From: a virus
Virus record (IMG/VR): IMGVR_UViG_3300017527_000643
Span: 1 to 64,000 of that record
Direction: 5' to 3' (one strand)
Length of the DNA: 64,000 nt
Positions 3,178 to 64,000 of the stretch are shown piece after piece. A model generated the notes under the pieces. The model worked only from the letters and a program-made list of their open reading frames with translations. It was not told the origin of the DNA and made no database searches. Every line of letters begins with the position of its first letter. Within the stretch, counting starts at the first letter, position 1. The position numbers and the translations under genes are program-made.

Positions 3178-4326
3178 ATGAAAACTACAAATAAAATGGA
3201 CGGAGATTCCTTCGCCAGGGAACTTGCTACTGCGGTGTCTTCTCCCAAGGACAACCACATAATTATTGCGCAGGAAGCCGTAGATCTTAAAGATGAAGCA
3301 ACGCAGTCTGCACAATCGTATTGGATGATGGGGTGGACTTGGGATGAAATTGAATCTGTCTTAGAAGATTCAGAATACCCCAAGAACGTTATCACCCACG
3401 CGATAAAGAACACAAAAGAATATGCTAAAAAGATACTGAACGAAGGTCCGTTTTCAGTTTTAAAGATGGGGCAGGATGTAAAATTGGTCAATGGGTCAGT
3501 TGGTGTATTGGAAGAGAAGTACGCTGACCACATTACTATCAATTTAAAAGATCTTGGCAGTACAAATATTACTGCTGATCAGTTGGATCTTCCTGCTACG
3601 GAGATGTTACGAGAAGCATACGGGCTTAGAATGAAAGCTGACCACATGCTTTATAAGCTGTCTACTGACCAGCTAGAGCCTATTTCGGTGGAGAGCCAAG
3701 CTATAGATCCTGCGCTTGAATCCGTTGATAATGCGCTTTCAGTAATGGCAAGCATTAAACAAAATACGGATGAAGTAAAGCGTGAAGCGGCGCAATTACA
3801 CAGCAAATGGGAATCCGATGTGGGCAAATGGGAACCCCAATCAGAAGAAGAGCGTGAATTTGCGCAGTATGTACAGGTAACGCTCACTGGAGAAAGCCAA
3901 GTAGACAGTGAGATTACAGAGGTATTTCATAATAGATTAGGTAGCGTTCTTGCCTCTCTGCACGATGAAATCCGTAAAGGAGCAGCAGTTGTAGATGAAG
4001 GTGTTCTAGACTTTCTGAATAATACGTTTCCCAACATTACAGATAAACTCGAAGCACATCTTTATGGGATCAAGCAGCGTAACGCTAAGGCACGGGAATA
4101 TGTACAGCAGTTCGCAAAATTTGATAAAGAAGATGCTGAGTGGAAGAAAAATGCAGTTCAATTTGCCGTGTCTTCATGGGAACTTACAAAAGAATTTATG
4201 GAAACATGGGAGTCTATAACTGTTCCTAGAATTGAAAAGGGCATTCAATCCATTTCGGGGCTTTTGGGGAATGTAGCTAAACAGCAAATAACTGCATCAG
4301 TTCAGAAAGCTTTGAAAACCCTTTAG
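3178..4326 (+). CDS. Hypothetical helical protein in head module
   Basis: 382-aa ORF with GAGG SD; no recognisable motif. Confidence 0.6.
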   Translation: MKTTNKMDGDSFARELATAVSSPKDNHIIIAQEAVDLKDEATQSAQSYWMMGWTWDEIESVLEDSEYPKNVITHAIKNTKEYAKKILNEGPFSVLKMGQDVKLVNGSVGVLEEKYADHITINLKDLGSTNITADQLDLPATEMLREAYGLRMKADHMLYKLSTDQLEPISVESQAIDPALESVDNALSVMASIKQNTDEVKREAAQLHSKWESDVGKWEPQSEEEREFAQYVQVTLTGESQVDSEITEVFHNRLGSVLASLHDEIRKGAAVVDEGVLDFLNNTFPNITDKLEAHLYGIKQRNAKAREYVQQFAKFDKEDAEWKKNAVQFAVSSWELTKEFMETWESITVPRIEKGIQSISGLLGNVAKQQITASVQKALKTL

Positions 4327-42474: not shown

Positions 42475-45240
42475 ATGGTTGCTTACGTATCCAATACATT
42501 GGCGAGTAGTGGAATATGGAATAACCCATTATCATGGCTACCCGTTGGCGTACCTGCACTCGGAGATTCGGCGCTAATTCAGGCAAATCATACCATAGAA
42601 ATAACAGCTAATCATTCGATTGGTACCGACCCCAATGCTGATATGGGCGGTAGTCCTGGTGCGTGGACGAATGCTGATCTTATTGTTTATGGTTTGTTGA
42701 AGTGGGCGGATAACCCAGGTGCGAACCTTACACTTTTAGTTCAAACTAACGTAGTTTTAGATGGTGCAACGGGTGGGGGCTTAGGTCGTTTTAGAATTGG
42801 GCAGAGTGCAGGAAGCCCCCTACCATCGAATAGAACTGCAACAGTACACTTTACAAGTTTAGCTGGATACCAATATCGAATGCACATTTGGCACGGGGAA
42901 TTTGTGACACATGGTGCGGTTGCATACCATATGGCAGATGCTACAAGCCAGCGTACAAAGTTAACGGCTGCTCCGACTACGATTAGTCAATCCGCTAATC
43001 AGGTTGCAGTAGCAGATGATGGGGGGGCGCTTACTACTGAAACTGTGGAAGCAAATGACGCCACGGCCAATGATATGACACTACTGCCTGCAGTTCCTGC
43101 AATGAACGACGCATATTATTGGGGAGATGATGGTAAATTTGCTAAATTGGTGCTCAATCAAGGAACAGCCGGGGCTGGTACTTGGACGATTTATTGGGAA
43201 TATTATAATGGAGTAGCTTGGAATAGAATATTAACTCCTGATGGTAATAATCAATCATATGCATTTAAATCTTCTGGAACGCAAACTATTGAATGGCAAA
43301 TACCTGGAGATTGGATAAAGACTTCGGTAAACGGCATTAGCGCTTATTGGATTCGTGCGCGTGTAAATTCATACTCAGCGGTCACAACACAACCATTGGG
43401 TACACAATCTTGGCCATATATATCGGATGCTCCAACTATTTCTTTAGATGACGCTGTAGATTGGTCTGTGGGGGATGAGCTTGTTGTTGGTCAGGGAGGG
43501 GATAAGACCGCTGTTATGTGGACTGCTCCTGGTCCTACACAATCGGGCGATTGGGGAATAGAAAAAACAACAATTACGGGTAAAACAGACGCATCAAATT
43601 ACACATTGGATAGTTTAGCATTTGACCATCAAGCAGGCGATTTTGTGATTCAGTTGGATCGTAATATTATAATAAAAGGAGATGCGATCTTACGTGGATT
43701 CGTAATTTATGTTCCTAACCACTCTGGTACAGATGATTGGGTAATAGATATTAATTGGACAAAGTTTCAATTTATCGGAAGAAGTTCCCCCCCAACAACT
43801 TCTGCGGGTTTTAATATTAATCAGGCGATACTCACTGATGGAAATTTAAATATAAAAGATACTGTTCTAGATACATGTGCAGGAGGCCAGCCACCTAGTC
43901 TTGGTCGGGTGCTACTCATGAATGACTGCACATGCAAAGCAACAACTGATTTGTGTGATGAACTTCATTTTGTTTTAGCACAAGAAGGCATTCTGAACAA
44001 TAACTGCGACGGTCGATTCCCGTATGGACATCTTTCATTTATAGGTATTTTTGAAACATGTGTTACGAACACCTCTGCATTAGATTTGCAAAGTTTTTGG
44101 TCTTCTAATCTTGCTAGAAATCCTGCGTCAGCTAACCAGTATACATTTTCAGGAAATGCTGGAACCGTTCGTGTGTATAGTGGAGAACATCACTGCGGGG
44201 CTGGCGTAGCAGAAATGTCTACAGGAACAACCTATGATAAATTCGGTGGCATTTTTGAAAATATAAAAGCTTATCATAGCAGGTTGCGTGGAATTACTAT
44301 AAATAGCCATGCTTTAATTTTTTTCATACGTAACTGCGAATTCTATAATGGATCGGTTGGAATATACATAATATCTGATGATAATTGTATGACAATTGTA
44401 GAAAATACTTCATTTGATGATTGTGACACAGAGGCAAGCAATACAGGTGCAGTTGTTGTTGCTAGCGATATGAACATGAAATTTAGAAACTGCACTTTTG
44501 GTACTGTAACAAGAAATTTTCATAATATGATTTTTACCGCTACAGCCCCTTGGATAAATAATGGCGGTACATGCGTTTTTGAAAATTGCATTATTAAAGA
44601 ACCTACCTATTCAACGGCTGTCGCAGGCCCAGATTGGGGCATCCGTCAATGGATCTGGTGGGAAAGTAATTTGGACGATTATGATGATCTAAGTCTTTGG
44701 AATAGGATGTGTGCATATGAATTAGCTGATGTTCAATTGTTGAATAGCAGCGGCGTAAACCAATGGTCTACATTATTCGGGACTGCTTCTCGTGTGATTA
44801 TTTCTGGCGGGCGTGGGGAAGTGCACCAAGAAGCAAGCACTATCATCGATAATTCGTTTGCGATTAAGCTAATTCCGTTTAGTTGCGTAGCTGAATTTTC
44901 AGGAACCCACTATCATCCATTGGAAATCCCGGTGGATTCCGGTCAAACAATTACTGTGAAGCTGTCATTGCAAAAGAACACATCGCTTCCAACCGGGCGG
45001 CGTCCAGCAATTCACCTGTTTGGTTTGGGAATCGATGAAGAATCAGAGATGTCGAATGTGAATAATAGCTGGGAAGAATTGACTGTATCAGGAACAGCAT
45101 CTGTTAGTGGTTTTGTACGTTTTTGGGTGAGTGGCGGGTATAACACTCATGATAGTTCGAGCCTTGATAATTTTTTACGGTCTGATCCATTAGGCACCGT
45201 GTTTGCCTACGCTGATGGATTAGATGTGACAATTAGCTAG
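42475..45240 (+). CDS. Tail spike/adhesin A2 (G8-like + inserted CBM-like domain + beta-helix)
   Basis: Shares N- and C-termini with A1; extra W.YYNG..W...YWIRAR jelly-roll insert. Confidence 0.65.
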   Translation: MVAYVSNTLASSGIWNNPLSWLPVGVPALGDSALIQANHTIEITANHSIGTDPNADMGGSPGAWTNADLIVYGLLKWADNPGANLTLLVQTNVVLDGATGGGLGRFRIGQSAGSPLPSNRTATVHFTSLAGYQYRMHIWHGEFVTHGAVAYHMADATSQRTKLTAAPTTISQSANQVAVADDGGALTTETVEANDATANDMTLLPAVPAMNDAYYWGDDGKFAKLVLNQGTAGAGTWTIYWEYYNGVAWNRILTPDGNNQSYAFKSSGTQTIEWQIPGDWIKTSVNGISAYWIRARVNSYSAVTTQPLGTQSWPYISDAPTISLDDAVDWSVGDELVVGQGGDKTAVMWTAPGPTQSGDWGIEKTTITGKTDASNYTLDSLAFDHQAGDFVIQLDRNIIIKGDAILRGFVIYVPNHSGTDDWVIDINWTKFQFIGRSSPPTTSAGFNINQAILTDGNLNIKDTVLDTCAGGQPPSLGRVLLMNDCTCKATTDLCDELHFVLAQEGILNNNCDGRFPYGHLSFIGIFETCVTNTSALDLQSFWSSNLARNPASANQYTFSGNAGTVRVYSGEHHCGAGVAEMSTGTTYDKFGGIFENIKAYHSRLRGITINSHALIFFIRNCEFYNGSVGIYIISDDNCMTIVENTSFDDCDTEASNTGAVVVASDMNMKFRNCTFGTVTRNFHNMIFTATAPWINNGGTCVFENCIIKEPTYSTAVAGPDWGIRQWIWWESNLDDYDDLSLWNRMCAYELADVQLLNSSGVNQWSTLFGTASRVIISGGRGEVHQEASTIIDNSFAIKLIPFSCVAEFSGTHYHPLEIPVDSGQTITVKLSLQKNTSLPTGRRPAIHLFGLGIDEESEMSNVNNSWEELTVSGTASVSGFVRFWVSGGYNTHDSSSLDNFLRSDPLGTVFAYADGLDVTIS

Positions 45241-53800: not shown

Positions 53801-54039
53801 GCATTGGTCTAGCAGGCGTTGCAGGAATTATGGGGGCATCCCTGTCCATAAGTGCCGCTAACGCTGTGGGGCTACGCATCGTTGCTGACACTGCTGTTAA
53901 TGGAACAGGTATGCAAGTTTTTGCATCAAGCTTATTTGCAGAAATTTCTGCACCTACACAAGATGGTCACACTGATTCAGCAGAGGAAATTAAAGTTACC
54001 TTTAATGGAGCAGCTAGGTGGATTAGGTTGTATACTTAG
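50875..54039 (+). CDS. Long tail fibre protein
   Basis: N-terminal baseplate-anchor segment (GIAWGFQV...DVARGEGY); C-terminal ~450 aa of Ala/Gly/Thr beta-roll repeats (TAIYATA, AVxGxA). Confidence 0.75.
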   Translation: MQRTEYWNQTRPTDTQLNWTETSKTSAINQRLRSSAQMGIAWGFQVTVNSVDNTKIDVARGEGYSGGEFLINEFETAGSGQRISTYTDTPSGTDDTGPAATSQGLADYTAGVLNYVSLVYSETESHPLSERSYPFTNRQTVVTETFTVSVLTETQWNALDAEALNNRILVGIVTAQGAGTPITSANIEQFVQPKTLPSSSQPSTISGVTIVGISDVTPLGIGTLRWEPSTSSMYWTAPGDTEGTALTISDSGVFTIYSNNTNYTLSLNVVWGSLSLVAAETSENISIRSLYGREIPMFSATDQIHRDMVGSGQPSTTNPHALTLADIGGGTLDHADLFHVNGISKDADSTQLECQIDAINDRIQVTSLGGFENSFLVDGVTLTEASGSNYVNFDTAPAPDSGEYLIYVDSAGNLGKVQIGNAFTNFTNLDIWDISNIVAGTGEIEWDATNDRIRYKAPGDAVWGDWVYVADRAPPLTGNGGFYKVYSSTTANWIILEFSGIIGASNTETFTVVKDETSYSDESMLKLSVVHWDQPTEVLSNLRDIRRFVTADNRTEFEEEHDENGHHTKTLRNGLDIYNREANTLLDVYGESVVVRGRAVSHTAGYFSAESTMGLEAHASDSLGAKIHAPNFGLYASAATETAIYATAPNTVVTVLAGTDTAIRASAVGNIAGAFIADNIRAVYGSAANEACYFYAETDTAIRGNANGDTAIMGTAANTAVFGRAETRYAAYFSAPNTALYATAATEVAVSGLADSNAIRGTAADSFGVAGLAGVKVAVWGSAPNTAASFFANTATAIEANADRLAIYATVTDSQGIYVTAPNTAAQFTVETNTAVDAGALGETAVRAVASATAIWVSATNEGIRVTAAGATAIYATAGAAYGVAAQANQLAGWFNASSDYSGNEVLGLYGAATNAAAGHEESAIGVSGWVVGSLATAVHGSAAHASYGTGVLGEAGSGNIGVGAYGVFGSAGVAGIGLAGVAGIMGASLSISAANAVGLRIVADTAVNGTGMQVFASSLFAEISAPTQDGHTDSAEEIKVTFNGAARWIRLYT

Positions 54040-54335
54040 TAAACGCAATCGTTGTTTGCGATTTTCTCGTTTACTTCCATTAGTTTTTCAGTGCAGTTGT
54101 GCGGTGTCCACCCTTCATACCAGGAATTTTGAACACAGTCCATCGGCTCTTCAACAAAATCTCCGCATTGCTCCTTGAGATCTGCAAGCGCGTGGCAGTA
54201 CTCGTAGCATTCCGCATACATTATCTTGAAAAAATCTTCTGTTGTCATTTCGTCCAGTGAGCACTCACATGTCGGGTCTGCCCCGCAGCCCCCAAGTAGA
54301 AATCCTAATGCTGCAATTACTGTAACCATTTTCAT
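54036..54335 (-). CDS. Cys-rich lipoprotein
   Basis: ATG 54335 with AGAAAGGAG SD; MKMVTVIAALGFLLGG-C lipobox; 8 further Cys. Confidence 0.75.
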   Translation of the reverse strand: MKMVTVIAALGFLLGGCGADPTCECSLDEMTTEDFFKIMYAECYEYCHALADLKEQCGDFVEEPMDCVQNSWYEGWTPHNCTEKLMEVNEKIANNDCVY

Positions 54336-54459
54336 TTCGTTCTCCTTTCTAAACTCAATATCAGGTCGAAGTTTAGTTTTGTAAAGTAATTTTTTATGAG
54401 AAATCACTAGACCTTTTGGTAATGATGAGTATAATGTCTCCAGGAACATAGGAGATTCC

Positions 54460-56382
54460 ATGGGCAAACCCCGAATCCAAGAACTCGAAAAAATCCTTAC
54501 AAATGCGCAGGATGAGTACTACAACGGCACCTCCATCATGGGAGATGACGAGTACGATGCCCTGGCAGATGAGCTTGCTGATTTGGACCCTAAGAATAAG
54601 GTTCTGAAGCGGGTAGGAGCCTCTGTTTCTGATGATGCCAAGCTCCAGAAAGCTAAACATGCGATTCCAATGGGATCGCAGAAGAAAGTAAATGAAGAAG
54701 CTGAATTTCGTAGCTGGGTAAAAAAGACAGGTGCAAAAACGCTAGTTTGCCAAGAAAAGCTGGACGGCTTATCAATTGATTTGGTATACAAGAAGTCAAA
54801 ATTAGTTCAGGCAATTACACGCGGAGACGGCGAAACAGGAGAAGACATCACACATAATGTTGTTCATATGGATAACGTGCTTCACAGGCTTCCCAAATTT
54901 AGTGGCAGTATCCGTGGTGAAATTGTCCTTCCGAAGAGCAGGTTCGAAAAGCATTTTGCAAATGAAGGTTACGCAAACCCAAGAAATGCTGCTTCAGGAC
55001 TTTCAAGGCGTAAAACGGTAAATAAGAAGACACTCCAACATATCAAGATCATTTCCTTTGACTGTACCCACTCCAAAATTGACTTCAAGAAAGAACACCA
55101 CAAAATACGCTTTTTGGAAGGTATGGGCGTTGATTGCGTTTTCACTAAAGTAGTAGATCTGACAAATGCCATCAAGGGCTACAATCTATATCAAAAAACC
55201 AAGCGTGAAAAGCTCGATCATGAAATCGATGGTATGGTTTTCAAAGTCAACGATGTAGCAGCACAGGAAGCGCTTGGAGAGACGGACGGAAGACCCAAGG
55301 GACAGGTTGCCTGGAAGTTTGCTGCAGAGATGCGTAAAACTATACTGGAGGATGTTTCCTGGGAGGTTGGCCTTACCGGTAGAATCACTCCTGTAGCGAT
55401 TTTGAAGCCCGTGGGCGTAGGTGGCGTTACTATCAAACGTGCCAGTCTCCATAACGTGAGCAACATGGAACGCCTGGGTGTTTACCCAATGGCAGACGTT
55501 TTGGTGAGTCGTCGTAACGACGTTATTCCCTACGTAGAGAAGGTTATTGCGAAAGGCAAATCAAAACAACCAGGGAAATTCAAGGTTCCTTCAGACTGCC
55601 CTGTTTGTGGCGAAGATACAGAATTTGAAGGCGAATATTTGATGTGTTCCAGCAAGGATTGCCCAGCGAAGAAAGAGGGCGATATTAAGAAGTGGGTAAA
55701 GAAGCTCGATATAGATGAAGTCGGAGAATCTTTTATCCGTGCCGCAATCAAGGCAGGTTTCATTGAAGACCCGGCTGACTTGTATACCTTATCTGCCGAT
55801 ACGGTTGCTACGCTGGACGGCTATCAAAGCAAGAGTGCGAAAACCATCGTGCGCAATATCAATAAGACAAGAGAATTGCCTCTCAAGAAATTTATGGGAG
55901 CATTGAACATTCCCAATGTAGGAACTACCACATTTGCAGCATTGGAAAAGGGTGGCTTTGATACTATTAGAAGTTTACAAGTAGCAACTTGGGGTGAATT
56001 TGCAAAAGTGGATGGAGTGGGAGATACCACGGCTTTGGCTATTTATAACGGGCTAATCGATAAAGAAAAATTGATCGAAAAGCTTTTGAAAAACGGTGTG
56101 TCAGTAAAAAAGAAGATCGTAGGCAAACTTAGCGGAAAATCATTTTGCTTCACTGGTCAGATTTCAATCAAACGTGGCGATGCAATGAAGCTCGTGGAAT
56201 CCATGGGCGGTGAAATCAAAAGCAGTGTGGGGAAAGGGTTGACCTACTTGGTTCAAGCCAATAAGACTTCTGCATCAGGCAAATCCCAAAAAGCAAAAAA
56301 GTATGGCACTGAAATTCTCGGTGAAAAAGAATTCTTCAAGCTTGTAGACTTTTCATTCAAACGCCTTCAATCACTTAGCTAA
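54460..56382 (+). CDS. ligA: NAD-dependent DNA ligase
   Basis: EKLDG, AITRGDG, NPRNAASG, IDG.VFK, VG.TGRITPVA, C4 Zn finger, HhH, BRCT. Confidence 0.97.
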   Translation: MGKPRIQELEKILTNAQDEYYNGTSIMGDDEYDALADELADLDPKNKVLKRVGASVSDDAKLQKAKHAIPMGSQKKVNEEAEFRSWVKKTGAKTLVCQEKLDGLSIDLVYKKSKLVQAITRGDGETGEDITHNVVHMDNVLHRLPKFSGSIRGEIVLPKSRFEKHFANEGYANPRNAASGLSRRKTVNKKTLQHIKIISFDCTHSKIDFKKEHHKIRFLEGMGVDCVFTKVVDLTNAIKGYNLYQKTKREKLDHEIDGMVFKVNDVAAQEALGETDGRPKGQVAWKFAAEMRKTILEDVSWEVGLTGRITPVAILKPVGVGGVTIKRASLHNVSNMERLGVYPMADVLVSRRNDVIPYVEKVIAKGKSKQPGKFKVPSDCPVCGEDTEFEGEYLMCSSKDCPAKKEGDIKKWVKKLDIDEVGESFIRAAIKAGFIEDPADLYTLSADTVATLDGYQSKSAKTIVRNINKTRELPLKKFMGALNIPNVGTTTFAALEKGGFDTIRSLQVATWGEFAKVDGVGDTTALAIYNGLIDKEKLIEKLLKNGVSVKKKIVGKLSGKSFCFTGQISIKRGDAMKLVESMGGEIKSSVGKGLTYLVQANKTSASGKSQKAKKYGTEILGEKEFFKLVDFSFKRLQSLS

Positions 56383-56912: not shown

Positions 56913-56941
56913 TTGACAAGCTACCATTGCGACCCTATATT
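56913..56941 (+). promoter_or_regulatory. Sigma70 promoter P1
   Basis: TTGACA-agctaccattgcgaccc(17)-TATATT, AT-rich upstream. Confidence 0.85.
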
Positions 56942-56987
56942 AGTAATGCGCAAAGGAAAGCGCAACTTATTAGAAGGGAGAACTAAT

Positions 56988-57887
56988 ATGACGGGCGTAA
57001 GCGGACTTTCGGTAATCGGGTACTTCGTGTGGTGGACGGTTAGCAACCAGAAGATTCGTAGGGATGACATGCAGAAGCTGATCGACGCAGCAGGTGTGAA
57101 GGACAATCAGGGGAAGCCGTTCAAGGTTCCTGAAGTGAAGGCGCGGTCTGCCTTCCTGAAGGCTGTCCGTGAGATTCGCGGGCAGAGCAAGAACAAGGGC
57201 ATCCTGATTCGCAAGATCAAGAAGGAATCAGAGGAATACCTTTTTGGGCTGGTTGATGAGGATGTGAACAAGCATGCACAAGAACTGAACTACTCGCACA
57301 GCGCCACCATGAAGTTCGATCCTATCCACGGTAATTTGAGTGTGGACCAGCCGCATCGAGGGTTCGATCTGGTCAAGGAACGGTACGCAGAGTACAAGGA
57401 TTTCATGAACAGCGATGATGTTCGGGAGATCGTCCTTACCATTCTGAATCAGATTCCCACTGTCAGTGTTCGTCAGCGCGGCGGCATCTACTTTGTGCCT
57501 GAGAAGTTCTCAGCCGAAGTGGAATGCCTGGAATCGCTGGTAGGCTCGCTGCCAGGTGGCGGGGAAGTTGATTTAGCTACGGTGGGCACCGGCTCCGCAA
57601 ACGGCAGTTACCTGGCGGTCGCTCCCCAGATCGATACTGAGAAGTCCAAGAAAGCCATCTACAAGGCATTTGTCGCTAGCTTGAAGTCCCGTATGCAGAG
57701 CTTCGAAAGTGACCTGGAAGAGAACGGTATCACCCAGACACACGCCCTCAAGACCCGTCTCCAGGAATTCAAGGACATGAAGGCTGAGATCGGATTCTAC
57801 CGGGATGCGCTCGAATTCCAGGTGGAAGATCTTACTGAAGGCTTGGATGCACTGACCAAGAAGGTGCAGAAGAAGTTGATGGAATAA
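56988..57887 (+). CDS. DUF6744/DUF3150-like protein
   Basis: IGYFVWWTV, AF.KA, R..GGIYFVP, helical C-terminus; ATG 56988 after AGGGAG. Family call from memory of the pattern. Confidence 0.55.
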   Translation: MTGVSGLSVIGYFVWWTVSNQKIRRDDMQKLIDAAGVKDNQGKPFKVPEVKARSAFLKAVREIRGQSKNKGILIRKIKKESEEYLFGLVDEDVNKHAQELNYSHSATMKFDPIHGNLSVDQPHRGFDLVKERYAEYKDFMNSDDVREIVLTILNQIPTVSVRQRGGIYFVPEKFSAEVECLESLVGSLPGGGEVDLATVGTGSANGSYLAVAPQIDTEKSKKAIYKAFVASLKSRMQSFESDLEENGITQTHALKTRLQEFKDMKAEIGFYRDALEFQVEDLTEGLDALTKKVQKKLME

Positions 57888-57893
57888 TGATTG

Positions 57894-57915
57894 GGAGGGC
57901 TTAGCCCTCCTTTTT
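57894..57915 (+). terminator. Rho-independent terminator
   Basis: GGAGGGC-TTA-GCCCTCC-TTTTT. Confidence 0.85.
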
Positions 57916-57946
57916 GTTTCTGCAGTATAATGAAAGGAGAAGTCTG

Positions 57947-58312
57947 ATGAAGAAGAAATTGACGAAGGTAAAAGAAGCCAGAAAGCGACTAGGACTTACA
58001 CTGCGGGATTTGGAGGAAAAGGTTGGAGTTTCCAGGCAAGCACTGTCAGCATACGAGCGTGGAGATTACCCCCCGCGTGAGGAAGTTTGGAAGAAGCTGA
58101 AGAAAGTTCTCAAGCTGAAAGGCAAAGTGGAAGAATATTGGGGCAGAGTTGCACATACCGGTAAAGCGAGACTGTACCATGAAGGTTCGGAATGCTACAT
58201 TAAGGGTTGCCACATTCAGCCAATTAGCCAGGGGTTGTGCCGCAAGCACTACCAGCGCATTCGTTATCATAGGATAACCCATGGCATTGCCCCAGAAATT
58301 AGCGAAGCTTGA
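57947..58312 (+). CDS. XRE-family HTH regulator with C-terminal CCCH Zn finger
   Basis: ARKRLGLTLRDLEEKVGVSRQALSAYERG; C.IKGC......GLCRKHY. Confidence 0.85.
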   Translation: MKKKLTKVKEARKRLGLTLRDLEEKVGVSRQALSAYERGDYPPREEVWKKLKKVLKLKGKVEEYWGRVAHTGKARLYHEGSECYIKGCHIQPISQGLCRKHYQRIRYHRITHGIAPEISEA

Positions 58313-58658
58313 AAGGCTGGCAAACAAACTAGGATATATAATAGTTCCTGGTAAAGAAAACGCCCTCCTGCCTGAAACAAAGACGATCACTGTAAACACG
58401 CGCCAATCTCCTATAAAACGCGCTTGGAATACCGCGCATGAAATAGGGCACGCAATTACGTTGACTCGTTGTGTGAACGAGATTGGTAAACGGGCACTTA
58501 GCGGTGCGTCCTACGAGTGGCCCACACTAGAGGCAGAATTTCGTGCGTGGCGCGAAGCAGATAAACTCATGAGAAAACTAAAGTTATACAATGACGCCTA
58601 CCTTAAGTATAAGCATTCCTGCATAAGATCCTATTATTGCTCATCAAATAAAAAATAA
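58281..58658 (+). CDS. ImmA/IrrE-family Zn metallopeptidase
   Basis: ITVN....PIKRAWNTAHEIGH...EAE..A; overlaps the XRE gene. Confidence 0.75.
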   Translation: MALPQKLAKLERLANKLGYIIVPGKENALLPETKTITVNTRQSPIKRAWNTAHEIGHAITLTRCVNEIGKRALSGASYEWPTLEAEFRAWREADKLMRKLKLYNDAYLKYKHSCIRSYYCSSNKK

Positions 58659-58676
58659 ACTTTGTAAAAATTCCGG

Positions 58677-58705
58677 TTGACAAGCTAAACTTCCGACCCT
58701 ATATT
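58677..58705 (+). promoter_or_regulatory. Sigma70 promoter P2
   Basis: TTGACA-agctaaacttccgaccc(17)-TATATT. Confidence 0.85.
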
Positions 58706-58750
58706 AGAGGTGTCAGCGGGAAAGCTAATATAACCGCAGGGAGAACAAAT

Positions 58751-59896
58751 ATGAAAGCTCTGGAGAAAGTCAAGAAGTTGCAGGAAGAACTGGATGCCAA
58801 TATCGTAGAGCGGTCTACCGAGATCGAAGGTTCCCTGGCGGCACTGATTGCGAAGGTGCACGTCCTTTTCCTGGGGCCTCCCGGAACCGCCAAGTCCCTG
58901 TTGGCTGAGAACATCTGCAAGGCGCTTATCGGCGGAAAGTTCTTCCGCTGGCTCATGACCAAGTATACGACGCCTGAAGAGTTGTTTGGTCCACCCTCCC
59001 TGAAGGGGCTGGAGAACGACGAGTACCGGCGTATCACCAAGAACAAGCTCCCGGAAGCTATTATTGCTTTCCTGGACGAGATCTTCAAGGCCAATTCAGC
59101 CATTCTGAACAGTTTGCTGACGGCTATCAATGAGCGCAAGTTTGACAACAACGGCGACAATGGTCCGATGGATATTCCCCTCCTGTCCTGCTTCGGTGCC
59201 TCCAATGAGTTGCCGCAGGGCGAAGAACTTGGCGCACTCTATGATAGATTCCTGATGCGCTATTGGGTCAAGGAAATCCAGGACGATACTAACTTCTGCA
59301 ACTTGCTTGCTGGCAATATCGGGAACAACGACCCTAGCGTGGAGCTTACCATCGAAGAGATCGATGAATTGAACAAGCTGGCGGCAGAAGTAACCCTCAC
59401 GCAGGACATGCTTACCAACATGCGGAAGGTCCAGGCCGATCTGAAGATCAAGGGCGTCACCGCAAGTGACCGTCGCTGGAAGAGCGCTGTAGGCGTTCTG
59501 AAGGCACTTGCGCTGCTGCGCGGGCAGGATGAGGTTACCGGAGAAGAACTGGAAGCGCTGGCAGACATGATGTGGCAGAAGCCTGAAGACCGCAGGACCA
59601 TCCTGGAAGTCGTGAGCCAGTACGGCAACCCTCTGAACCTGAAGGCTATCGAATACCTGGATATGGGCAAGGAAGTTTACGACAAGTGGGCGCAGGCAGA
59701 CAAGGATGCCCAGGAAATGGCAGCAATTCAGGCGAACAAGCAGATCAAGGAAATCCTCAAGAGCATCAAGGCTGACATCCACGGGCGCTCGGACTCCGAA
59801 ACCCGGAAGCTGCGGGAAACCCAGAAGACCCTGAAGCGCCACCTCAAGACCCTCACCATGAAGATGATGGATCTGGATGATTCGGACAGCTTCTAA
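58751..59896 (+). CDS. MoxR-family AAA+ ATPase (RavA-like)
   Basis: GPPGTAKS, TTPEELFGP, FLDEIFK, ASNE, LYDRF, SDRRW. Confidence 0.92.
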   Translation: MKALEKVKKLQEELDANIVERSTEIEGSLAALIAKVHVLFLGPPGTAKSLLAENICKALIGGKFFRWLMTKYTTPEELFGPPSLKGLENDEYRRITKNKLPEAIIAFLDEIFKANSAILNSLLTAINERKFDNNGDNGPMDIPLLSCFGASNELPQGEELGALYDRFLMRYWVKEIQDDTNFCNLLAGNIGNNDPSVELTIEEIDELNKLAAEVTLTQDMLTNMRKVQADLKIKGVTASDRRWKSAVGVLKALALLRGQDEVTGEELEALADMMWQKPEDRRTILEVVSQYGNPLNLKAIEYLDMGKEVYDKWAQADKDAQEMAAIQANKQIKEILKSIKADIHGRSDSETRKLRETQKTLKRHLKTLTMKMMDLDDSDSF

Positions 59897-59904
59897 AGAT
59901 TCAC

Positions 59905-59933
59905 TTGACAAGCTTCCCTCCCGACCTTATATT
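59905..59933 (+). promoter_or_regulatory. Sigma70 promoter P3
   Basis: TTGACA-agcttccctcccgacct(17)-TATATT. Confidence 0.85.
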
Positions 59934-59952
59934 GTCTCTAGCGGAGGAAATA

Positions 59953-61401
59953 ATGAAGGGCAAAACTCTAATCGACTATACGAAGTGGGAAAAGGTTCAG
60001 AAGGAAGGCTTCCAAGAGAAATACGAACCGATGCAGGAAGCAATCAAGAACGGCGACAACAAGGGATATACGTTTGACCCATTCACGCAGGATCTTTTCA
60101 GTGCCCTTTACCAATTGAAGCCGCAGTTCCCGGAAGAAGCTACCCCTGGCACGAACTGGCAAAAGGAAGCACTCGATACGATGCGGGATCTCCGCGAGTA
60201 CAAGGATATTCGCAACGGTGGAACCCTCTGCGATAGCTTCCAGTCTGGTCTGGGCGCTACTGTGATGGCAAAGCATTTTGCAGAAGTGCTGCCTGAAATG
60301 GAAGAACCAAATCCCGATGAACTTCAAATGCAGCAAGAAGCTATCGAAGATTTTCTGCAGGAATTCCCCGATCACCCGAATAAGGAAAAGCACCAAAAGG
60401 CACTCCAGCGAATTGCAGACCAGAACAAGGCTTCGTCAAAGGCATGGCAGGAAGGTGCTATGAAGGGGCAGGATCTGCGGATTGCCATGCGCCAAGCGTT
60501 GACGAAGGCCAAAGAGGCTATCGGAAAAGCAGAAGAAATGGCAGATGCCTACGGGTTTGGCGACGAACCCGGTAAGGATGGGTACACTGACCCCACTATG
60601 AAGTTGCGGATCGCAGAGAAGGTTCGTGCCAATCCTAAGCTGCGCAAGCTGGCTGAACTGGCTGGAAGGTTCCGTAGAGAGGCTAGGAAGGCCCAGGCGC
60701 ACAAGAAGTCCCCTGGCCCGGATGAGATCACGGATATCGAGATGGGAGCCGACCTGGGGCGTCTTATCCCTTCGGAGCTAATGAAGCTGGCTCACCCTCT
60801 GATGAAGCTCGAATTTGCCCGCAGGATGCTGGAACGGGGCCTGTCTCAGTATAAAATGGAATCTGTAGAAAAGAAGACTCGTGGGCCTATCATCGTTTGT
60901 ATAGACAATTCATATTCGATGAGTGGTCCTAAAGAGATTTGGAGCAAAGCCATTGCGCTGGCTATGTGCCAGATTGCGGTCGATCAGAAGCGCACTTTCG
61001 AGGTTATGCATTTTGATACTAAAGTACAAAAGATCTTTGCATTTCCTGCTGGAAATACTAACCCAGAAGAACTGATTCAGTGTATGTCATACTTTAGTAA
61101 GGGCGGTACTAAATTTGCTCCGGTGCTTGCAACAGCGTATGACCATATTACGAATGCGGCTGAAAAGGATTTGAAGGAAGCGGACGTTATCTTTATCACA
61201 GACGGCGAAGCTCCACTGAGTACCACAGAACAGCAGATTATCACTGCAGCCAAGAAGGCGACCGGTGCGAGCCTGTACACGATTTGTTTGGGTGCGACTG
61301 CCCCTAGCCTGGAGCCGATCAGCGATAAGTTCCTGGATCTCAAGAATCTGACTTCTCCTGAAGATGAGGAACAGGCCAAAGAGCTTATTTTCTCTGTTTA
61401 G
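59953..61401 (+). CDS. VWA-domain protein (ViaA-like)
   Basis: G.DL.RL.PSEL, GPIIVCIDNSYSM (MIDAS DxSxS), GGT, ITDG. Confidence 0.9.
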   Translation: MKGKTLIDYTKWEKVQKEGFQEKYEPMQEAIKNGDNKGYTFDPFTQDLFSALYQLKPQFPEEATPGTNWQKEALDTMRDLREYKDIRNGGTLCDSFQSGLGATVMAKHFAEVLPEMEEPNPDELQMQQEAIEDFLQEFPDHPNKEKHQKALQRIADQNKASSKAWQEGAMKGQDLRIAMRQALTKAKEAIGKAEEMADAYGFGDEPGKDGYTDPTMKLRIAEKVRANPKLRKLAELAGRFRREARKAQAHKKSPGPDEITDIEMGADLGRLIPSELMKLAHPLMKLEFARRMLERGLSQYKMESVEKKTRGPIIVCIDNSYSMSGPKEIWSKAIALAMCQIAVDQKRTFEVMHFDTKVQKIFAFPAGNTNPEELIQCMSYFSKGGTKFAPVLATAYDHITNAAEKDLKEADVIFITDGEAPLSTTEQQIITAAKKATGASLYTICLGATAPSLEPISDKFLDLKNLTSPEDEEQAKELIFSV

Positions 61402-61480: not shown

Positions 61481-61876
61481 ATGGCACGGGTACTTATAGT
61501 TGATGACGATCCATCTATATTGAAATTTGTAGAGGAAATATTAAACAAATATGCGAAAAACGAATATAGTTCAGATTGGGATTTACGGGTTACTTCAGTT
61601 AGCAGCGCGATTAAAGCGCTAGAAATAGTAAAAGAGCATAATTTTGAACTGATTATAACTGATATTCTGATGGCGCGTATGGATGGGTGGGAATTTATTA
61701 AGGAAATTAGAAAGAAATTTCCGCAGTTTGATACCCCAATTGTAGTTATATCTGCGATCCAAGGGGCAGATCTAAAGTATGAAAGTATGCGGCACGGAGC
61801 AAGTGCCTGGTTCCATAAGCCATTGCGCCCAAAGGAATTCACCACAGAAATTTTTAAATTGATTCAGGAGCGTTAG
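61481..61876 (+). CDS. Single-domain response regulator (CheY-like)
   Basis: VDDD, TDILM..MDG, ISA, KP: all phospho-acceptor residues present; GGAGG SD; TGGTACAAT extended -10 upstream. Confidence 0.9.
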   Translation: MARVLIVDDDPSILKFVEEILNKYAKNEYSSDWDLRVTSVSSAIKALEIVKEHNFELIITDILMARMDGWEFIKEIRKKFPQFDTPIVVISAIQGADLKYESMRHGASAWFHKPLRPKEFTTEIFKLIQER

Positions 61877-63564: not shown

Positions 63565-63599
63565 TTGACAAATCTTTAGTAGATGTTTATATTACATCT
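63565..63599 (+). promoter_or_regulatory. Sigma70 promoter P4 with palindromic operator
   Basis: TTGACA-17 bp-TATATT; AGATGT-N7-ACATCT brackets the -10. Confidence 0.8.
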
Positions 63600-63642
63600 G
63601 TCGAAGTGCTGTCGGGAACTAAACAATGAAGGGAGAACGAAC

Positions 63643-64000
63643 ATGGGTAACAAGGTAAAGAAAACGGAGCCGAAGAAGCGGGTAAAGCGGTACGACGACG
63701 CTGAGAAGGTGAAGCTCTTGAATGACTATCAGGAACTTCGAAACGGTGGCAAAAACGCTGATGTTGCTGCCAAGGAAGTTGGCGTTCCCTACATCACTTT
63801 GCGGACGTGGCAGAAGGCCAAGGAAAAGAAGCCCAAGGGCAAGAAGAAGGCTGTGAAGGCCCTTGCGCGGGGCGCGAAGGCCAAGAAGGTACGCACTCCC
63901 AAGGCTCCCAGCGCGGCTGTCGTGCTCGTGCTCACGGATGGGACGCGGGTCGAATGTGCCAATGCTACGGATGCCGTGGCGTTCATCAAGGCCAATCGCT
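63643..64000 (+). CDS. HTH protein resembling IS66 TnpA/HTH_Tnp_1, running off the window
   Basis: KRYDDAEKVKLL...AAKEVGVPYITLRTWQK, K/A-rich linker, VVLVLTDGTRVEC C-terminal motif. Confidence 0.65.
   Translation, partial: MGNKVKKTEPKKRVKRYDDAEKVKLLNDYQELRNGGKNADVAAKEVGVPYITLRTWQKAKEKKPKGKKKAVKALARGAKAKKVRTPKAPSAAVVLVLTDGTRVECANATDAVAFIKANR

Follow-up and report, generated by a model that had tools for sequence, protein, structure and literature searches.

The first 64 kb of the IMG/VR viral contig IMGVR_UViG_3300017527_000643 (the window) contain three genes, encoding a DUF6744 protein, a MoxR-type AAA+ ATPase and a vWA protein, that form a conserved module of phages and plasmids and that are each preceded in this genome by a promoter of the same design (Table 1). 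Gene order in relatives supports a module that recurs widely on mobile DNA, and the matched promoters, a common ribosome-binding site (RBS) block and capsid-like codon usage support co-ordinate and strong expression of the trio, so far as expression can be judged from sequence. A pair of genes between DUF6744 and MoxR, encoding an XRE-family helix-turn-helix (HTH) protein and a small M78 metallopeptidase, looks like an insert in a variable slot and not like the switch of the module. The contig is 93,971 bp long with a GC content of 43.8% and was rated 51% complete by CheckV, so that the phage genome is probably about 185 kb. The nearest named relative of its major capsid protein is that of Virus Rctr197k (44% amino-acid identity).

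Relatives' loci were collected by homologue and locus searches and are numbered L005-L039. MoxR followed DUF6744 in 14 of the 16 distinct phage and plasmid loci that extended far enough 3′ of DUF6744 for gene order to be judged, and vWA was visible in 12. Plasmids, too, kept the order of the trio, and it persisted at identities as low as 22%; the loci included Moorella phage MTATph1 (DUF6744 5.6e-61) and plasmids of Brevibacillus marinus and Pseudanabaena. A DUF6744 locus search in species-representative bacterial genomes and a single-sequence MoxR locus search in viral contigs found nothing. The identities given to the DUF6744, XRE-HTH, HExxH peptidase, AAA+ and vWA genes by a first-pass annotation were confirmed by Pfam and PHROG profile matches. 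MoxR scored 174.4, 89.8 and 53.9 bits against the bpMoxR, AAA_5 and AAA lid models, respectively, and has the P-loop GPPGTAKS and the Walker B motif FLDE. The metal ion-dependent adhesion site (MIDAS) of the vWA protein is intact (D318-x-S320-x-S322, T386, D417); among 33 homologues D318, S320 and T386 were invariant, and S322 and D417 were at least 90% conserved.

The promoters P1, P2 and P3 fit the motif TTGACAAGCT-N7-CGACCYTATATT, in which the 17-bp spacer consists of AGCT, seven variable bases and CGACC(C/T). The motif had been proposed with a central N8, a form with no matches; with N7 it had exactly three perfect matches, all on the + strand and at the proposed sites (56913, 58677 and 59905), and neither the window (0.00 expected) nor the full contig contained a further match with three or fewer mismatches. 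Indeed, an unsupervised repeat search independently recovered the identical three-copy family. Each site, 48-75 nt 5′ of the start codon of its gene, has a -35 hexamer with 6/6 matches, a -10 hexamer with 5/6 matches and a 17-bp spacer, and so qualifies as a sigma-70/SigA-type element. As had been claimed, the spacer is conserved at both ends: all three copies agree at 10 of 17 columns (binomial tail ~2e-8), and pairwise identity is 12-13/17, compared with 2-3/17 to a further promoter at 63565. The likeness ends at the hexamers, both flanks differing, and six of the seven central spacer positions differ as well. Even the adjacent MoxR and vWA genes are separately promoted, P3 beginning 9 nt after the MoxR stop codon.

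Codon usage sets the trio apart in the same manner. The G+C content at third codon positions (GC3) is raised in all three genes, as the first-pass annotation had noticed, at 0.551-0.723 against a genome mean of 0.414 (standard deviation 0.097), or 2.7, 3.2 and 1.4 standard deviations above the mean for DUF6744, MoxR and vWA. The other real genes of highest GC3 are a Lys-rich HTH gene (Table 1) and the major capsid gene (0.633). The shift in synonymous codons that separates the trio from the remaining genes correlates with that of the capsid gene (r = 0.78), with CTG, AAG, CAG, ACC and ATC increased and ATA, AGA, TTA and CTA decreased. Because the two shifts run in parallel, the bias points to very high expression and not to gene transfer, and selection for such expression would account for the GC3 of the trio. 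In addition, an 18-nt RBS block, GAAGGGAGAACnAAyATG, occurs at 56973-56990, 58736-58753 and 63628-63645. It is common to DUF6744, MoxR and the Lys-rich HTH gene, the three genes of highest GC3, and each of these stands behind a promoter with 11/12 matches to the consensus.

Table 1. Positions of the promoters, genes and other elements in and around the DUF6744-MoxR-vWA cluster (window coordinates).
Feature	Position	Strand	Description
Looser promoter-family member TTTACAAAACTAAACTTCGACCTGATATT	54357..54385	-	5′ of lipoprotein-like gene 54036-54335; CTAAACTTC and CGACC in common with P2
P1	56913..56941	+	TTGACA, 17-bp spacer (AGCT...CGACCC), TATATT; predicted driver of DUF6744; orthologous promoter in L007-L013
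5-bp hairpin TGCGC-N8-GCGCA	56947..56964	+	Predicted 5′ end of DUF6744 mRNA; kept in 6 orthologues, with one covarying pair
DUF6744, 299 aa	56988..57887	+	PF20529 1.4e-31, 110.1 bits (cutoff 27), profile positions 20-307/314; GC3 0.673
Intrinsic terminator	57893..57921	+	Hairpin and T-run after DUF6744; hairpin kept in L007-L011, absent from L012 and L021
TATAAT -10 element	57926..57931	+	Putative weak promoter for XRE/M78, no good -35
XRE-family HTH protein with C-terminal CCCH zinc-binding motif, 121 aa	57947..58312	+	HTH_3 4.3e-14, 52.7 bits
Small M78/ImmA-like metallopeptidase, 125 aa, HEIGH	58281..58658	+	PF06114 1.1e-4, 22.4 bits against a cutoff of 22 (borderline); phrog_87 5.2e-8
P2	58677..58705	+	Predicted driver of MoxR; L008, L011 and L021 orthologues with 16-bp spacers of different sequence
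bpMoxR-type AAA+ ATPase, 381 aa	58751..59896	+	PF20030 2.1e-51, AAA_5, AAA_lid_8; phrog_19600 5.5e-94; GC3 0.723
P3	59905..59933	+	Predicted driver of vWA from a ~12-nt leader; orthologues in L008 and L011
vWA protein, 482 aa	59953..61401	+	VWA_2 5.3e-10, 40.3 bits; phrog_24053 6e-59; GC3 0.551
Stand-alone response-regulator receiver gene	61481..61876	+	PF00072 1.1e-20; near the trio in L005, L012, L015 and L031
Fourth promoter	63565..63593	+	11/12 consensus, unrelated spacer; 5′ of Lys-rich HTH gene (63643 onward, GC3 0.708)

The bias also offered a test of origin. Three high-GC3 genes in a genome averaging 0.41 could be read as an island, recently acquired together with its own promoters from a donor of higher GC content. 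The shift fits the phage's own capsid gene, however, and the GC3 of the trio is raised as well in the diverged relatives L005, L022, L025 and L015 (35-50% identity), with the order seen in the window (DUF6744 approximately equal to MoxR, both above vWA). Moreover, the whole neighbourhood from lig and orf111 through DUF6744 to the response-regulator gene is syntenic in relatives. Horizontal import was rejected on these grounds as the cause of the high GC3 and retains only a minimal probability.

The strict motif sits inside a promoter family that extends through the phage. Looser relatives were found at 54385 (- strand), 69619, 83021 and 86530, together with a truncated copy at the contig end. 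They carry CTAAAC, in either orientation, beside the -35 hexamer and/or GACC(C/T) beside the -10 hexamer; the -35 hexamer followed by CTAAAC occurred five times against 0.37 expected. The genes behind them are the lipoprotein-like gene and small open reading frames (ORFs) without a Pfam family. Thus the genome-wide scan divided the earlier proposal, since the strict motif proved private to the trio and its looser relatives stand 5′ of unrelated small genes, which is in part the generic promoter that the annotation had named as the finding that would speak against a dedicated regulon. A position weight matrix scan returned no extra members of the family at or above 12 bits, and the class-B box TTTACAAAACTAAAC was absent from all of the relatives' loci. 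Two further sites, CACTTTACAAGTTTAGCT at 42850 (+) and CACTTTACAAGCTTAG at 83854 (-), resemble the -35/box part of the family with no -10 after it and may be dead or partial copies. Phage promoter families conserved beyond the hexamers exist, such as the early promoters of T4, a host-sigma class scattered before unrelated genes. The window genome differs in that its boxes (AGCT, CTAAAC and CGACC) are genome-specific, with three strict and about four to five loose copies in 94 kb.

P1-P3 and the promoter at 63565 each match the sigma-70 consensus at 11 of 12 positions. The small Lys-rich protein encoded at 63643 has a weak HTH_Tnp_1-like match and may be an abundant DNA-binding protein.

In relatives the arrangement of one promoter per gene was also found in L008, L011 and L005, the last of which has no XRE/M78 pair. 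The orthologous promoters of relatives kept TTGACA and TATATT and did not keep AGCT or CGACC. P1 of the window had 4-11/17 spacer positions in common with its orthologues, P1 and P3 within L008 and within L011 had only 6-8/17 in common with each other, and a 17-bp P2 spacer was seen in the window genome only. The C-rich stretch at -16 to -13 was partly retained in several orthologues (for example, GCGACCC in L009 and GTGACCT in L008).

Additional features were seen at the predicted 5′ ends of the transcripts. The P2 -10 box (TATATTAG) and the sequence CTAATATA (58725-58732) are the arms of an 8-bp inverted repeat that encloses the predicted start site (58700-58732); the repeat is kept in L008 and L021 and is not present in P1 or P3. 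No consensus structure was found for the 5′ untranslated region downstream of P2, and no Rfam family matched over 54-64 kb. The hairpin at 56947-56964 could tentatively be assigned as an mRNA-stabilising 5′ stem.

The first-pass annotation had described the cluster as a regulon wrapped around an XRE/ImmA-type switch, with AGCT..CGACC as the operator. As it had noted, the XRE and peptidase genes overlap (by 32 nt). The XRE protein ends in a C-x4-C-x9-C-x2-H tail, and the helix GVSRQALSAYERG and residues C83/C88/C98/H101 were invariant in eight orthologues; indeed, the recognition helix was unchanged across these orthologues down to 55% identity. In the peptidase, H53, E54, H57, E84 and E86 were invariant. 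The terminator after DUF6744 (hairpin 57893-57911 of 8 pairs, 6 of them GC, then a T-run) insulates the pair on the upstream side; the claim of insulation did not hold downstream, no terminator being seen after the M78, MoxR or vWA genes. The pair has its own -10/RBS block, GTATAATGAAAGGAG, conserved in eight orthologous loci, and the region upstream of XRE has no box in common with P1-P3.

The distribution of the pair was likewise not that of a module component. XRE and M78 occupied the gap between DUF6744 and MoxR only in the closest clade (the window, L008, L011, L021 and the short contigs L007, L009, L010 and L026), and in seven loci the gap was empty and the trio contiguous. Conversely, L012 and L031 have DUF6744-XRE-M78 with no MoxR or vWA following, and no MoxR at all was found in the 61-kb record that contains L031. 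In two other relatives the pair is decaying: in L017 (778-912) XRE is eroded to a 44-aa remnant without the HTH, and in L010 (1806-2177) the M78 gene has an internal stop codon. Other loci hold other genes at this position, namely three small ORFs in Moorella phage MTATph1 and, in L039 (6065-7004 of the Brevibacillus marinus plasmid NZ_CP034542), a DUF4258 gene with a small hypothetical gene, possibly toxin-antitoxin-like. Small two-gene cassettes seem to accumulate in this slot. Since the pair is clade-restricted, lies in a variable slot and is separable from the trio, and since the boxes are not kept in relatives' orthologous promoters despite the invariant XRE helix, a regulon switched by XRE/ImmA is not supported, and AGCT/CGACC probably do not bind XRE. 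No operator of this XRE protein was identified. What stands of the proposed co-regulated three-component module is the conserved module and its co-ordinated strong expression, for which synteny, promoters and codon bias speak; the XRE/ImmA switching does not. A repressor/protease pair inside a cluster is not evidence for control of that cluster.

Taken as a whole, the favoured explanation, considered somewhat more likely than not, is one of matched host-sigma promoters, an abundant trio and a separate XRE/M78 cassette. In this model P1-P3 would be near-consensus promoters for the host housekeeping sigma factor, with activity and timing predicted from their sequence, and would belong to a phage-peculiar promoter family with extra conserved boxes beside the -35 and -10 hexamers. 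Each promoter would give one trio gene its own short-leader transcript, and the promoters together with the common RBS block and capsid-like codons would be expected to make the three proteins very abundant. Separate promoters would also free expression of the trio from the terminator and the cassette that interrupt the cluster. Judged from other MoxR-vWA pairs, the MoxR ring may work through the vWA MIDAS on a client or scaffold, for which DUF6744, as the constant third partner in a presumed complex, is the best candidate; it is proposed for this role because of its constant linkage to MoxR-vWA. The XRE-zinc-finger/M78 pair would form a regulatory cassette of its own, with its own promoter, in the variable DUF6744|MoxR slot. 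The most likely function of the boxes is either to modulate how RNA polymerase recognises the promoters or to bind a factor common to the looser family. A phage factor acting at the boxes and spacer sensing by sigma-70 are equally possible explanations; sensitivity of sigma-70 to spacer sequence at -18 is known (PMC3130263), and positions -18 to -14 are those of the CGACC box.

Several observations weigh against this explanation. The boxes are more alike among the promoters of the window genome than among those within L008 or L011, which calls for a lineage-specific cause, and conserved spacer ends around a variable middle would also fit a bipartite operator. The contig covers only about half of the phage genome, so that the strict motif may have further copies. 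Furthermore, L025 has a homologue of the XRE-CCCH zinc-finger protein (3957-4310) about 350 bp 3′ of vWA, without M78 and with a contiguous trio, and this is a second, positionally different link of the XRE-zinc-finger family to the trio. The operator-like spacer and the L025 homologue are also what the switch model would draw on. There, XRE would repress P1-P3 through AGCT...CGACC until a signal led M78 to cleave it, with joint derepression in the manner of ImmR/ImmA, and the position of the regulator pair inside the cluster with its genes overlapping, the operator-like arrangement of the boxes and the L025 homologue are all compatible with that. The model is nonetheless improbable, given an invariant recognition helix facing boxes that vary and even a 16-bp spacer in the P2 orthologues, an XRE upstream region free of the boxes, the absence of the pair from most trio loci, its survival without MoxR-vWA in L012 and L031 and its erosion in L017 and L010, box-bearing promoters 5′ of unrelated genes as well, and a CGACC that is not palindromic.

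A different objection is that the boxes have no regulatory meaning and reflect common descent, one strong promoter having recently overwritten the other two by gene conversion or illegitimate recombination. The paralogous spacers are indeed more alike than most orthologous ones, the 17-bp P2 spacer is peculiar to this genome, and the looser relatives are chained (P2 resembles 54385-, which in turn resembles 83021 and 86530), as in a spreading family. A conversion tract would, however, homogenise the centre and the flanks too, so likeness that stops exactly at the hexamers and spares the central 7 nt counts against conversion; a spacer conserved at its ends and variable in between speaks for function more than for a simple tract. 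The partial retention of the C-rich -16 to -13 stretch in several orthologues, such as those of L009 and L008, also tells against overwriting, which is accordingly considered unlikely. The boldest alternative, to which a modest chance is allowed, is that AGCT, CTAAAC and CGACC are sites for a phage factor, possibly the XRE-zinc-finger protein or the Lys-rich HTH protein of 63643, that times a small early regulon whose core is a capsid-level-abundant trio machine acting on DNA-bound proteins. If true, remodelling machines under transcriptional control of their own would form a class that is widespread on mobile elements and has not been studied. The three matched promoters also provide a compact natural test set for the effect of spacer sequence beside the hexamers.

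As a variation on the MoxR-vWA theme, the trio has not been described before. Pairs of this kind are established remodelling chaperones, most of them without a known client, and here a constant third protein travels along. The closest parallel in composition is the group of MoxR-vWA ternary conflict systems (Kaur, Burroughs, Iyer and Aravind 2020, PMC7159879), which likewise combine MoxR and vWA with a constant third protein. The MoxR of the window matches the bpMoxR model, its P-loop is of the GxxxTAKS type noted for some ternary-system MoxRs (PMC7159879), and the MIDAS is intact. In those systems, however, the third component is VMAP, iSTAND, FtsH or a beta-propeller, and with DUF6744 in its place the trio falls outside the class. 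Pfam scans of the three trio proteins found none of these third-component domains and no effector or EAD domains. The ternary systems are found on chromosomes of multicellular bacteria, whereas the DUF6744 trio is found on phages and plasmids. PADLOC gave no defence-system match above noise; DUF6744 and vWA had no match, MoxR matched only LmuB (2.9e-4), and XRE and M78 weakly matched RmrA, capH and capP.

Among two-part systems, E. coli RavA-ViaA, CbbQ/CbbO, NorQ/NorD and CoxD/CoxE likewise place an ATPase ring and a vWA/MIDAS adaptor side by side and presumably remodel a client; the module of the window differs from them by its conserved third gene. No LARA or ViaA-specific domain was found in the Pfam scan of the trio, which returned only bpMoxR, AAA_5, AAA_lid_8 and generic vWA. 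RavA and ViaA are reported at ~350 and ~90 molecules per cell (PMC3893208), and by contrast expression of the window trio, judged by its codons, looks capsid-like. MoxR-vWA pairs are also known from Bacillus phage 0305phi8-36 (ORF066/ORF063), from jumbo-phage group 2.2 and from Acidianus two-tailed virus. The window MoxR has 36% identity to ORF066 over 92% of its length. In 0305phi8-36 the island that carries ORF066 and ORF063 can be deleted (PMC3357382). An assembly-chaperone role has been proposed (PMC7824862). Matched promoters are not described for these pairs, and hhalign found no homology (probability 0.2) between DUF6744 and the genes 5′ of MoxR in 0305phi8-36 (ORF067) and Aphanizomenon phage CL131 (gp148, LPD29). 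The XRE/M78 pair resembles ImmR/ImmA (ICEBs1, phi105), DdrO/IrrE and CapH/CapP in that an XRE HTH gene is adjacent to and overlaps a gene for an HExxH M78-type peptidase. It differs in the minimal size of the peptidase, the CCCH zinc finger of XRE and a linkage to its neighbours that is clade-specific.

DUF6744 is a large family (3,527 clusters at 50% identity, E ≤ 1e-3) without a recognisable fold, present on large phages and plasmids of unrelated bacteria, and no paper mentioning it was found in the searchable literature. In the AlphaFold model (predicted local distance difference test score, pLDDT, 81.7), an alpha/beta region makes up the N-terminal part and three helices form a bundle at the C terminus. 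Foldseek with the whole model retrieved nothing from the PDB at E ≤ 1e-3, and VIA-align with the same model retrieved generic three-helix bundles only, matching residues 217-299. When the N-terminal 216 residues were folded alone (pLDDT 81.2), the best Z was 6.8, within noise. Residues 52-138 bear a faint resemblance to TBP-like, RnlA-NRD and RNase H3 N-domain structures, which is at most a lead. The BFVD viral library yielded uncharacterised viral proteins only, one of them from Haloarcula virus HVTV-1. Complex prediction for DUF6744 and vWA, both supplied as alignments, scored 0.00, which gives no call either way. A conserved, unexplained and apparently abundant machine of mobile DNA is a well-defined object for structural and genetic study.

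The genes that flank the trio also recur in part. The response-regulator gene is followed by a coiled-coil gene that is likewise conserved near the trio in L005, L012, L015 and L031. Just 5′ of DUF6744 lies an NAD-dependent DNA ligase gene (54460-56382), which in L031 (370-2277) directly adjoins DUF6744. The neighbours of the trio are often genes of DNA metabolism, with the ligase in the window and L031 and with ribonucleotide reductase, RecQ, Pol III beta, single-stranded DNA-binding protein and a DEAD-box helicase elsewhere; this neighbourhood is a lead and not a finding.

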